A stretch of DNA of 64,000 bases, taken from assembly GCF_013315695.1 (NCBI RefSeq), contig NZ_CP054353.1; one strand, 5' to 3'. The position numbers are program-made. Shown here one piece after another: positions 6,701-9,246 of the stretch. The DNA comes from Escherichia coli (GTDB lineage Bacteria > Pseudomonadota > Gammaproteobacteria > Enterobacterales > Enterobacteriaceae). The first letter of the stretch is position 1; every line of letters starts with the position of its first letter.

Positions 6701-9246
6701 AAAATACTTTACCGGGGCTGTCGACGGGGATGCGCGTGATAAGTTTACCCACTGGCTGATAAATTTTAATAAACTCAAAGAACATGCAATAGATCCGGAA
6801 AATATGGCCGCGAAGGCCTCACTCTCGCCAAAAGATACGTTAAGAGTCAGTTTTTTTATTGGCGATGAGGCGATATTTACTCTGGAGTTGCAGATGAAAG
6901 AGAACACCAGGACCGGGTGCATTGATCTGAGTAATGCTTACTTTAACGGGGTTGTCATTTGTGGTATTGACCGTCTCGAGGTTGACCTGAGCAATGCTGA
7001 AATGAACAATAGCAGATGGTATGACTGACCTGTGCGAGGTTAACCTGAAAAAGCTGACCGTTCCGGCCAGAACAAGGCCAGACTGCGCCGTTATTGATTA
7101 ACTCAGAATATGAAAGAGGGGCTGGAATGCCCCTTCTTTAATCTTATTTGCGACGCTAATCAGACGATGCATAAAACAGAGAAAATATAAAAGTAATGTA
7201 TTTTATTCATTCCGTCTGAATATAAAAAACGCGCTCATCACCGCCAAAAGGCGCGAGCTACTCTGGATCCGGTGGTGCAAACCACGCTGATTTAAAATCG
7301 AACCAGCCGAGGGGGTTCATACGTAGACCGCGCATACTGCGTTGCCCCTGAATGATCAGCCAGTGGTGGATAAGCGGCACCATTGCTTTGCTGGCGACCA
7401 GTTGCTGGCACCAGTTCGCCAGGTTCATTTCGCCATTGCGCCAGCGGGCGGCGTCGGCTTGCCAGTCGATCGGAAGACAGTGTTGGAGCAGCGGCACCTC
7501 GCACAAGTGCGCGAACAGCGAAAAATCCAGCGGCAGCGTAAAGTTGGCGCTGTTAAGCCAGATATCGCTCTCGATCTCTCCTTCATGCCACTGATCGTAG
7601 CTGATCTCTTTGATTTCCAGCGTGACCTGGTGACTTGCCAGAATCTGCTGCATGATCCCGGCAATCACTCGATGCTCAATATGATCCTGATAAAAGGTCA
7701 GGGTGAGGCTTTCCAGCCCGGCGGGTTTTTCGCAATGTGTCGGACGAGCATGGTGCCAACGGGGGAGCAGTCCATAAGCCGGGAACCACAGTTGCTGGTA
7801 CTGTTCCTCAGCGAAATAGACCAGATTAGTTGGAGAAAGCACGTAGCTTACCCAGTCCCTGACTTGCTGATTCGCCCCGCGATGGGTGCGGCTGTCGAAC
7901 AGTAAATAGTAGCAACCTTCCTCCAGGCGGCTTTCAATCTCTTTTTCCTCGCCCTGTGGCCCTTTTAGCATCAGCCCTCCGGCTGGCTCGTCGGCAATTT
8001 CCGGCAGAACCCAGACGTTAACTTCGTCGATTAATGCCCGGTAACCGAAGAAGTCATCGAATGCCTGAATTTTCAGTTGATTGGTGCTGTTGCGGATCAC
8101 CGCATACGGACCGGTGCCGATGGGATGGCTGGCAAAGTTGCTGAGGGTTTCCCATTCGCGCGGCAGGATCATCGCCGGAACTTGCCCCAGCAGTAACGGT
8201 AACCAGCGGTCCGGTTGCGTGAGATGGATATCCAGCGTCCAGGGCGTCGGCGACACAATGTCAGCAATATGCGAATAGAGCGGCAGCGTATTGATTCGTT
8301 TTAAAGAGGCGATCACGTCGTCCATTTCCAGTTCACGACCATGATGAAAATGGATCCCCGGACGCAAAAAAAAGCGCCAGTGAAGCGGTGAAATTTGCTG
8401 CCAGTGGTGGGCGATGTCCGCTTCCAGTTCCCCATTTTCCTCATTTATGCGCGTTAGCGAACTGAAGATTTGCCGGGCGATATGGGTTTCGGAACGACGC
8501 AATGCACTACCGGGCAGCAGATTACGCAACGGACGATAGTAGAGAACGCGCAGGATGTGCCGCCCCTGGCGGAAGCTGCGGCCCAGATGAGAAACCAGCA
8601 TTTGCCGCACAGTCGCTTTGTCGCCAACCAACTGCACTAGTTGATCGATACGATCCTGCTCCAGCAGGTCTTCCGCCCGCTGTTGCTGAAGCGCCAGCCC
8701 GGTATAGAGGAATGTCAGACGCGAGCGTTTACCGCGCCCGACTTCCGCTTCCCACGTCAGCCAGCCGCGATCCTGCATGGTGTTGAGCAGGGTGCGCATA
8801 TGACGACGCGAGCAACTCAGTAACGCTGCCAGTTCGTTGAGCGTGGTCTCCTGCGATTTACCCTCGCAGCATTGCCACAGGCGGATGAACTGTTGTTGCA
8901 GACGAGCAGATGGCATAAAAGGGGAACTCCTGCGCAAAAGTCAGCAATTTTATTTTCCCTATATTAAGTCAATAATTCCTAACGATGAAGCAAGGAGGTG
9001 CCCCATGCGTCAGTTTTATCAGCACTATTTTACCGCGACAGCGAAGTTGTGCTGGTTGCGTTGGTTAAGCGTCCCACAACGATTAACTATGCTTGAAGAA
9101 CTGATGCAGTGGGAGGGGAGTCATTCTGACTACTGATTTGCGGACATCATGTGTGACTGAGTATTGGTGTTAATCGCCACGCCAGCAGTGATTATCTGCT
9201 GGCTTTTTTCTTTTTGGCGATTGAGTGCCGGACGGTGTACAAACTA

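Follow-up and report, generated by a model that had tools for sequence, protein, structure and literature searches.

An intact sgrS–sgrT locus of the setA-less CFT073 type in Escherichia coli, with a terminator that departs from K-12

Introduction

In this work, we ask whether a locus in Escherichia coli whose terminator departs from that of K-12 still encodes a complete SgrS small RNA with its embedded peptide SgrT, and which of the two terminator forms is the typical one. The locus lies in a stretch of 64,000 nt (hereafter, the window), and we examined it by combining covariance-model and protein-family searches, folding, synteny and comparison with other genomes. We are highly confident that it represents the functional sgrR–sgrS/sgrT glucose-phosphate-stress system of E. 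coli in its CFT073-type (setA-less) haplotype, a reading that builds on sequence, structure, synteny and population distribution and from which we infer expression, Hfq binding and target regulation. The SgrS/SgrT allele is an ordinary one, already published in 2009, and belongs to one of the best-studied dual-function small RNAs.

By analogy with the model established for K-12 and Salmonella, a build-up of sugar phosphates would lead SgrR (7258–8916, − strand) to turn on the divergent sgrS promoter, and Hfq would be recruited to the terminator hairpin and U-rich 3′ end of the 227-nt SgrS. Positions 9151–9170 would then pair with the ribosome-binding region of the ptsG mRNA (manXYZ being among the further targets), blocking ptsG translation and triggering decay of the mRNA, while independent translation of the 5′ part of SgrS would yield the 43-aa SgrT, expected to inhibit the PtsG transporter.

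Results

Identity and synteny of the sgrS locus

The original prediction placed an intact SgrS at 8984–9210, complete with sgrT, pairing sequence and terminator, and named a covariance-model search as the way to check it. When run, this search passed by a wide margin: the Rfam SgrS family (RF00534) matches 8984–9210 on the + strand over its entire model (1–232 of 232, untruncated) with 227.6 bits against a gathering threshold of 37, and an E value of 6.2e-64 that is far beyond chance. All of the predicted elements are found within it. The locus is organized as follows:

7258–8916, − strand: sgrR, activator of sgrS transcription, divergent from sgrS (tblastn with K-12 SgrR, 97% over 551 aa at 8916–7264)
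8917–8983, no strand assigned: sgrR–sgrS intergenic region, holding the SgrR-dependent sgrS promoter, near-identical to K-12
8984–9210, + strand: sgrS small RNA, 227 nt, full-length RF00534 match
9244–9849, − strand: leuD, convergent with sgrS (tblastn with LeuD, 99% over 202 aa at 9849–9244)

The sgrR frame is open from 7258 in the list of open reading frames (ORFs), and PGAP calls the equivalent span sgrR in E. coli 118UI, a strain whose sgrS is 100% identical to that of the window. With sgrS divergent from sgrR and lying between thiB (tbpA), marked by its TPP riboswitch at 6119–6218 (Rfam), and leuD, the locus has the thiB–sgrR–sgrS–leuD synteny that serves as a criterion for SgrS (Horler & Vanderpool 2009, PMC2760817). 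The same study describes the sgrR–sgrS intergenic region as highly conserved, and here 8917–8983 differs from K-12 only at 8933 (C/T) and 8941 (T/A), leaving the 42 nt before +1 unchanged. A sigma-70 consensus scan returned no + strand site within 8917–8983, which we infer to be unsurprising for an activator-dependent promoter; the − strand matches at 9220–9191 and 9173–9146, within or just past sgrS, we regard as chance.

Among named strains, K-12 MG1655 (SgrS b4577, SgrT b4662) shares the length of 227 nt, the divergence from sgrR, the seed block, a 7-bp core of the terminator stem and a 43-aa SgrT, but its sgrS differs from that of the window at 27 positions, of which 25 fall within the 3′ half. 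CFT073 is far closer, with 224 of 227 nt identical and the seed, terminator stem and loop, unsequestered Shine–Dalgarno sequence and lack of setA all shared; the differences fall at 9088 (T/C) and 9100 (A/G), both synonymous in sgrT, and at the last base, 9210. The surroundings of the two differ: an inserted IS200C separates sgrS from leuD in CFT073 but not in the window, and an espY2-like insert lies upstream of sgrR in the window but not in CFT073. In O157:H7, sgrS is identical in 225 of 227 nt and has the same haplotype and synteny, with espY2 between thiB and sgrR and no setA, yet its espY2 region matches that of the window at only 94.7% identity.

Downstream, sgrS is followed after 34 nt by the leuD stop codon, with no setA between the two, and a tblastn search for SetA-coding sequence across the whole 64,000-nt window returned none. 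The sgrS–setA operon arrangement of K-12, where setA is co-transcribed by read-through of the sgrS terminator (Morita et al. 2015; 2014 review), is absent from the window, and the sgrR–sgrS–leuD layout without setA is also that of 118UI and O157:H7. As there is no setA downstream, the strain has no counterpart to the SetA-mediated efflux that terminator read-through provides in K-12. Strains with this allele are entirely without SetA, and their glucose-phosphate stress response is thus one arm short of the K-12 model.

The pairing block and the 3′ end

The second half of SgrS carries the elements through which the RNA would act on its targets:

9145–9170, + strand: base-pairing block CATCATGTGTGACTGAGTATTGGTGT, 26 nt, identical to K-12
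9165–9179, + strand: potential small pre-terminator stem-loop (UGGUG UUAAU CGCCA), from homology to K-12 and the literature (2014 review)
9181–9203, + strand: Rho-independent terminator hairpin, 8-bp stem and 7-nt loop, from scan and folding
9204–9215, + strand: U-rich tail TTTTTTCTTTTT (U6-C-U5), Hfq-binding 3′ end by homology, read from the sequence

The pairing sequence had been expected downstream of sgrT, its disruption being one of the observations that would have spoken against an intact SgrS; the block is there, undisrupted, and 9145–9170 reads as in K-12. The ptsG seed takes up 9151–9170 (K-12 nt 168–187), and the near-invariant stretch of roughly 13 nt that characterizes SgrS, complementary to the ptsG ribosome-binding region, is found with both G176 (9159) and G178 (9161), residues whose roles we take from the 2014 review. 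As the window contains neither ptsG nor manX, all duplexes were modelled with the K-12 versions of the targets. On K-12 ptsG (−29 to −8), the window and K-12 alleles are predicted to form the same core duplex, and the energies for manX (−35.3 versus −32.4 kcal/mol) and manY (−26.9 versus −24.2 kcal/mol) come from over-extended duplexes, which we read only as predicting that pairing is not lost. Unconstrained RNAduplex runs, of a 64-nt SgrS segment against targets of 140–270 nt, gave long and physically meaningless duplexes and were replaced by restricted windows.

The terminator stem is formed by GCCAGCAG (9181–9188) and CTGCTGGC (9196–9203), enclosing the loop TGATTAT (9189–9195) and followed by the tail given above. 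The terminator scan counts 8 pairs, of which 6 are G-C, and a loop of 7; the hairpin folds at −15.5 kcal/mol (z = −4.45; K-12 hairpin, −13.2 kcal/mol) and coincides with the positions that are paired in the Rfam consensus. At the sequence level, the terminator and U-rich tail that make up the Hfq-binding module of SgrS are both present, and the transcript probably ends near 9210. The pre-terminator stem-loop folds at −5.4 kcal/mol when taken alone (K-12 counterpart GGUG UAAAAU CACC, −4.6 kcal/mol), but in a longer context the minimum-free-energy fold favours an alternative to it (−23.3 versus −20.9 kcal/mol). For the isolated 3′ region, this fold pairs 9143–9149 with 9165–9171, part of the seed flank, in place of the hairpin.

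The terminator had been reported to differ from K-12 in both loop and stem. The loop does differ (TGATTAT against ATTATAC), but the stem keeps the same 7-bp core, CCAGCAG/CTGCTGG, and only its closing pair changes, from G:U in K-12 to G:C in the window, owing to a C instead of a T at 9203. Position by position, C-U6-C in the window aligns to the U8 tail of K-12, behind which setA follows in that strain. Across 35 tabulated loci, the stem is unchanged in 34, and the remaining one is altered on both sides with the pair kept.

Two haplotypes in E. coli

Of the 5,426 complete E. coli genomes compared, the window allele (at least 95% identity) is present in 2,158 and the K-12 type in 3,241, with no intermediates. 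The allele counts agree almost exactly with the absence or presence of setA: setA itself occurs in 3,241 genomes, equal to the count for K-12-type sgrS, while 2,157 have a setA-less sgrS–leuD junction. About 40% of E. coli strains (for example, CFT073), all of the setA-less type, carry the window allele. The strain-level variation proposed for the Hfq-binding 3′ module is real, but instead of scattered noise it consists of two discrete haplotypes that span the whole 3′ half. Going by named strains and general background, the K-12 type would belong to phylogroups A and B1, and the window type to B2, D, E and F.

The window haplotype is already published as the CFT073/O157-type SgrS, and the CFT073-type RNA was described as 88% identical to that of K-12 (Horler & Vanderpool 2009, NAR 37:5465, PMC2760817).

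Which haplotype is native?

The divergence from K-12 extends beyond sgrS and defines one further feature:

9099–9640, no strand assigned: tract unusually diverged from K-12 (sgrS 3′ half, setA junction and leuD 3′ part)

Differences from K-12 number 15–20 per 80 alignment columns in 9064–9183 and fall from 16 to about 5 per 80 in 9244–9643, against a background of 0–4, so that identity is 79.6% in the sgrS 3′ half and 92.3% in the leuD 3′ part compared to 97.8% in the flanks. Four lineages of other Escherichia species have a 3′ half 95.5–97.3% identical to that of the window and no setA; its conservation beyond that of the flanking sequence across these lineages indicates purifying selection.

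Outgroup loci were collected by one contig scan with a seed pattern of 19 specified bases, which returned no E. fergusonii, E. marmotae or E. ruysiae by name, nor S. enterica subsp. enterica; matches in Veillonella, Phormidium and Woesearchaeota have no sgrR, setA or leuD and were set aside as chance. A G:C closing pair with six T is the enterobacterial norm, at 25 of 31 species-level loci, and the U8 of K-12 is exceptional. Salmonella and Citrobacter share with the window the seed, the G:C-closed stem GCCAGCAG/CTGCTGGC, a 7-nt loop, a run of T6–T7 and the embedded sgrT, but retain setA downstream of sgrS, and in Salmonella and some Citrobacter the spacer between seed and terminator measures 22 nt rather than 10 nt. 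We also considered that the terminator is stronger in the window because no read-through into setA is needed, and rejected this, as the setA-positive outgroups all share the G:C-closed stem and T6–T7. It is K-12 that has the unusual form, the window terminator being common to other Escherichia and to most of the Enterobacteriaceae sampled.

A tentative explanation, to which we give less than an even chance, is that K-12 SgrS is a natural chimera whose 3′ tract was acquired by introgression from a donor diverged at the level of Escherichia, and that the window allele is the native, genus-typical one. The introgressed tract may comprise the SgrT tail, the pre-terminator hairpin, the terminator loop, the G:U pair, U8, setA and the leuD 3′ part. 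A close donor for the setA tract of K-12 was not found, setA having only 76–80% nucleotide identity to Citrobacter, Salmonella and other outgroups.

The opposite polarity, in which the setA-positive K-12 haplotype is native and lineages such as CFT073, Nissle 1917 and O157:H7 imported the window-type 3′ half together with the setA deletion from another Escherichia species, we consider unlikely. It would accord with setA beside sgrS being ancestral in the family, as seen without exception at the 36 enterobacterial loci outside Escherichia that have sufficient flanking sequence, and with a window leuD 3′ part that is somewhat diverged from other Escherichia too (89.7–92.2%). However, E. albertii, E. 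whittamii, E1V33 and SCPM all have the window type, lack setA and place leuD at the same offset of +94 to +96, and the K-12 type stands only about 80% from each of these four lineages, to which the window type is so close. Furthermore, Escherichia sp. MOD1-EC7003 has a K-12-type tract (100% in the sgrS 3′ half and 98.9% in setA) beside an sgrR that is only 94% identical to that of K-12, which shows that the tract moves between lineages.

In its terminator, its SgrT tail and its possession of setA, K-12 is the minority form of the genus, and annotation pipelines and readers should not take it as the reference state. Should K-12 SgrS indeed be the chimera, the rule that Hfq binding calls for at least 7 U and a moderate hairpin would have been derived from an atypical terminator. 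The G:C-closed U6-C form, carried by roughly 40% of E. coli and most sampled enterics, would in that case bind Hfq in some manner outside the predictions of this rule, or else differ measurably in termination, read-through or regulatory strength.

The poly(U) rule for Hfq binding

A terminator run of seven or more T has been proposed as a general feature of genes for Hfq-binding small RNAs (Otaka 2011; Morita 2017), and experiments with K-12 SgrS led to the conclusion that stable Hfq binding needs at least 7 U and that stronger hairpins shorten the tail. The window has a run of six (9204–9209) followed by C, and 25 of 31 other species-level loci likewise fall short of seven. As T6 is that widespread among sgrS loci, we see in it a limit of the rule and not grounds to exclude this locus from the SgrS family.

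Taken literally, the rule predicts weaker Hfq binding by the window allele. On that account, SgrS RNA would be made, yet its Hfq-dependent riboregulation would fall below that of K-12 and the strain would rely more on SgrT, the cause being a G:C-closed hairpin and an interrupted tail (U6, C) that yield 3′ ends with fewer than 7 terminal U. The more stable hairpin (by the fold energies above), the T run of 6 against 8 and the unsequestered sgrT Shine–Dalgarno sequence all point in this direction, but we judge the account quite improbable. The combination of G:C with T6 is the normal one at those 25 of 31 loci, which include all four setA-less non-coli Escherichia lineages, and the strong conservation of the 3′ half fits poorly with a defective module. 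The stabilization amounts to one closing pair, about 2 kcal/mol, far less than the shift from −10.7 to −24.0 kcal/mol given for the published variant LS1 with four inserted G:C pairs. Moreover, U residues resume beyond the C (U6-C-U5). This natural C-U6-C tail lends itself directly to testing the published poly(U)-length rule for small RNAs that bind Hfq.

The embedded peptide SgrT

Within the 5′ part of SgrS lie two features of the peptide gene:

8992–8999, + strand: sgrT Shine–Dalgarno sequence AAGGAGGT, unsequestered, by consensus, 6 nt upstream of the ATG
9005–9136, + strand: sgrT ORF, 43 aa, MRQFYQHYFTATAKLCWLRWLSVPQRLTMLEELMQWEGSHSDY, with ATG at 9005 and TGA at 9134–9136, Pfam PF15894

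The predicted 43-aa frame is borne out by the ORF list and by a Pfam match to SgrT (PF15894) over residues 3–37, scoring 50.0 bits against a cut-off of 27. Position 8996 is A in the window and G in K-12, and in folding a GGGG/CCCC hairpin covers the Shine–Dalgarno sequence of K-12 sgrT whereas the window allele forms none. Of 15 E. coli strains compared, only 3 were reported to have this hairpin, and it was described as inhibiting sgrT translation (Horler & Vanderpool 2009, PMC2760817). With the ATG intact and the Shine–Dalgarno sequence free of a K-12-type hairpin, SgrT is probably made more readily than in K-12.

That sgrT has decayed or gone untranslated, leaving the riboregulator function alone, is highly improbable: O157:H7 has the same haplotype with its sgrT start codon mutated to ATT (9007 G>T), a change reported to abolish SgrT (Horler & Vanderpool 2009, PMC2760817), and the six C-terminal residues of the window SgrT differ from K-12 outside the Pfam-matched core, but the window keeps its ATG and consensus Shine–Dalgarno sequence, its protein is that of CFT073 and 118UI, the tail is conserved among Escherichia species and both CFT073 differences within sgrT are synonymous.

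The protein, WP_001248768.1, is annotated identically in 118UI and CFT073, and in the literature we found no report of this SgrT being tested for PtsG inhibition. It shares 31 of the first 32 residues with K-12 and ends in EGSHSDY where K-12 has DDRNSES, following a pattern, EGS(H/D)S(D/E)Y, that is kept across Escherichia species. In other Enterobacteriaceae, SgrT sequences read in frame have 37–45 aa and end in QWE, QWEVTA or QWEATD.

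The SgrS–SgrT locus is intact

A whole-window Rfam scan places SgrS at exactly the predicted bounds on the + strand, with a score of 227.6 bits, far over the RF00534 gathering score of 37 (E = 6.2e-64), and with an untruncated alignment that spans model positions 1-232 of 232. The predicted 43-aa SgrT ORF has its start and stop, and its product matches PF15894 (Pfam SgrT) at 50.0 bits (cut-off 27), the same strength as K-12 SgrT (49.6 bits). The locus comprises:

8984-9210, + strand: sgrS (RF00534, whole-window Rfam scan)
9005-9136, + strand: sgrT, 43-codon ORF, ATG at 9005 and TGA at 9134-9136
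9145-9170, + strand: conserved 26-nt block, CATCATGTGTGACTGAGTATTGGTGT, the same as in K-12, inside the diverged half
9181-9188 / 9196-9203, + strand: terminator stem, GCCAGCAG / CTGCTGGC
Terminator loop and tail, + strand, from the sequence: loop TGATTAT, then TTTTTTCTTTTT

This CFT073-type allele is already known from the literature (Horler & Vanderpool 2009): SgrS of CFT073 and of O157:H7 Sakai share 88% identity with K-12 SgrS, and the O157:H7 and CFT073 forms are two nucleotides apart, with the sgrT start codon lost through one of these changes (PMC2760817), a mutation treated in the literature as abolishing SgrT. The sgrS of UPEC 118UI is 100% identical to that of the window, whereas CFT073 has two synonymous sgrT changes, at 9088 and 9100, and a third difference at the last base, 9210, and O157:H7 strain 3384 differs at 9088 and 9007, where its T gives ATT in place of the window's ATG. 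Because the window sgrT has the functional CFT073 form and not the O157 form, ‘intact’ is meaningful within the haplotype. The window locus is an intact, previously described and ordinary allele of a very well-known sRNA.

Two observations concern these relatives. Despite its ATT start, sgrT of O157:H7 strain 3384 (locus L003, 4022-4153) is annotated by RefSeq/PGAP as WP_001248768.1, the accession of CFT073. In CFT073 (locus L053, 7078-7536), an IS200C transposase gene lies between sgrS and leuD; as CFT073 departs from the window at the last sgrS base, the insertion is in or just after the U-tail.

The pairing seed is conserved within a diverged half

Aligned to K-12 (NC_000913.3), the window sgrS has 27 differences, indels included, of which the first 115 nt hold 2 and the remaining 112 nt hold 25 (Fisher p = 6e-7). 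The pairing region is undisrupted, as predicted: the unchanged block at 9145-9170 holds the ptsG seed (K-12 nt 168-187), including G176 and G178 (window 9159 and 9161), mutation of which abolishes ptsG repression (review). In a restricted duplex prediction with the ptsG leader of K-12, both alleles are paired over the same core, ptsG -29 to -8 with SgrS nt 167-188. The bases directly 5′ of the seed, at 9137 and 9142-9144, are unlike K-12 and could shift pairing with secondary targets; the duplex energies predicted for manX and manY, crude as these predictions are, are no weaker for the window allele.

Folded in isolation, window 9140-9179 has a minimum free energy structure that pairs 9140-9149 (GCG, GACAUCA) with 9165-9177 (UGGUGUU, CGC). 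It puts the seed core in a 15-nt loop and, at -23.3 kcal/mol, is favoured over the alternative with the small pre-terminator hairpin (-20.9 kcal/mol). The K-12 fold retains that hairpin.

A G:C-closed, six-T terminator is the family norm

Both a terminator scan and folding recover the terminator sequence as first read, with 8 pairs, 6 of them G-C, at the 3′ end of sgrS (-15.5 kcal/mol, z = -4.45). The original prediction that loop and stem are both unlike K-12 is right for the loop (TGATTAT vs ATTATAC) and wrong for the stem, whose 7-bp core is identical. The closing pair is G:U in K-12 and G:C in the window, because 9203 is C and not T. Position by position, the K-12 U8 tract reads C-U6-C in the window, where the hairpin is about 2 kcal/mol stronger and the consecutive T run is only six.

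Canonical terminators were compared at 31 species-level loci (four E. coli sequences set aside): a G:C closing pair is combined with T6 in 25 and with T7 in 5, and G:U with T8 occurs once, in Escherichia sp. MOD1-EC7003, which is of the K-12 type. Only Enterobacter chuandaensis departs from the 8-bp stem, and the loop varies freely in sequence at a constant 7 nt, so the loop difference of the window looks neutral while its stem and tail are the norm. In Enterobacter chuandaensis (L028), the stem is altered on both sides with the pair kept (GCCAGCAA / TTGCTGGC), which is direct covariation support for the terminator hairpin.

From K-12 SgrS, the Aiba laboratory derived that Hfq-binding sRNA terminators have at least 7 consecutive T; 3′-RACE gave 8U, 7U and 6U tails in 11, 3 and 1 of 15 clones, and the same laboratory concluded that hairpin stabilisation leads to a shorter tail and an inactive sRNA. 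With six consecutive T, the window allele falls below this criterion. Since its terminator form is conserved across the family, we think that it is functional; the published rule thus has an exception in nature, with a common natural allele falling outside ‘7 or more U’. We found no report in the literature testing this G:C-closed six-T allele.

Two haplotypes differ in setA

We found sgrS in 5,399 of 5,426 complete E. coli genomes, the other 27 having no match. Identity to the window is bimodal, at least 95% in 2,158 genomes and 80-90% in 3,241 (K-12, W, DH1 and O111:H8 included), with none at 90-95%. The ‘strain-level variation’ originally proposed is therefore real, but it forms two discrete haplotypes and is not scattered. 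In strain EBJ001, the match is limited to sgrS nt 1-131, pointing to truncation of the 3′ half.

K-12 has a 1,179-bp setA at the sgrS-leuD junction that is absent from the window, where 34 nt separate the end of sgrS from the leuD stop codon (9244). Comparing totals, K-12 setA occurs in as many genomes (3,241) as the K-12-type allele; a direct sgrS-leuD junction occurs in 2,157 of the 5,426. Three records labelled plasmid carry sgrS and setA.

Divergence from K-12 is a bounded tract that begins at 9089-9099 inside sgrT, runs over the junction into leuD and reaches background near 9640. Identity to K-12 is 97.8% in the intergenic region and sgrS 5′ half, 79.6% in the sgrS 3′ half, 92.3% in the 3′ part of leuD and 97.8% in the rest of leuD and leuC.

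A search by seed pattern across one genome per GTDB species, which took in neither E. fergusonii nor several named Escherichia species, yielded 47 loci. Outside Escherichia, setA follows sgrS at every one of the 36 enterobacterial loci that had sufficient flank (Citrobacter, Salmonella, Klebsiella, Raoultella, Enterobacter, Siccibacter, Superficieibacter and Pluralibacter). No setA is present in four further Escherichia lineages: E. albertii, E. whittamii, E1V33 (Escherichia sp.) and SCPM-O-B-8794 (a species representative labelled E. coli). In these four, leuD is offset from the seed by +94 to +96, as in the window, and the sgrS 3′ half has 95.5-97.3% identity to the window, above the 89-96% of the flanking sequence, and only roughly 80% to K-12. 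They share with the window type the SgrT tail EGS(H/D)S(D/E)Y, while the K-12 tail DDRNSES is otherwise found only in MOD1-EC7003.

We infer that the native form in Escherichia is the window type, descended from a family-level ancestor with setA, and that the K-12 type would owe its tract to import through homologous recombination, one breakpoint falling inside sgrS. The roughly 8% divergence in the 3′ part of leuD is at the interspecies level in Escherichia, so the donor would be about as far removed as a separate Escherichia species and would have kept setA. Import of the opposite polarity between the two types appears unlikely. If the K-12 SgrS 3′ half and setA were indeed introgressed, the model allele would be the atypical one.

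In MOD1-EC7003 (L039, a non-coli Escherichia), identity to K-12 is 100% in the sgrS 3′ half, 98.9% in setA and only 94% in sgrR, a sign that lineages have exchanged the tract recently. The idea that the stronger closing pair reflects the absence of a downstream setA dependent on read-through was rejected, as setA-positive outgroups share the terminator. At the 3′ end of sgrR (7264-7783), divergence from K-12 reaches 17 differences in 80 columns, where the background is 0-2; this segment borders the espY2 insert, so the opposite flank of the locus may hold a second tract linked to recombination or to an indel.

SgrT translation and proposed mechanism

In K-12, a small stem-loop, found in only 3 of 15 E. 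coli strains examined, conceals the sgrT ribosome-binding site (PMC2760817). At 8996 the window carries A (AAGGAGGT); the GGGG/CCCC hairpin folds in K-12 and not in the window. Among the 5,394 E. coli genomes with a match, 3,301 have precisely this 62-nt 5′ region (8979-9040), which is therefore the majority state in both haplotypes. Window SgrT should be translated free of a K-12-type inhibitory hairpin.

On the K-12 and Salmonella model (review), applied here by homology, SgrR would activate sgrS under glucose-phosphate stress, SgrS with Hfq would pair with ptsG, manXYZ and others through 9151-9170, and SgrT would inhibit PtsG activity; the SetA arm of this response would be missing in the window strain.

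Other features in the window

An espY2-like insert (6219-7257) includes a 189-aa ORF (6459-7028, + strand) between the thiB TPP riboswitch and sgrR, annotated elsewhere as the T3SS effector EspY2; a Pfam search of this ORF gave no hit. The site is empty in K-12 and CFT073 and holds a broken pentapeptide-repeat pseudogene in 118UI. Identity over the region is 100% with E. coli MS 21-1 and 94.7% with O157:H7, and 1,034 of 5,426 genomes carry it at 80% coverage or more. Other Rfam matches exceeding the gathering score in the whole-window scan are:

6119-6218, - strand: TPP riboswitch
13969-14118, - strand: Leu leader
35619-35709, + strand: PssrA
41356-41425, + strand: STnc40
41829-41905, + strand: naRNA4
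57599-57712, - strand: tp2

PssrA, described as a plasmid-encoded Shigella sRNA, here sits in a window whose synteny is otherwise that of the E. coli chromosome.
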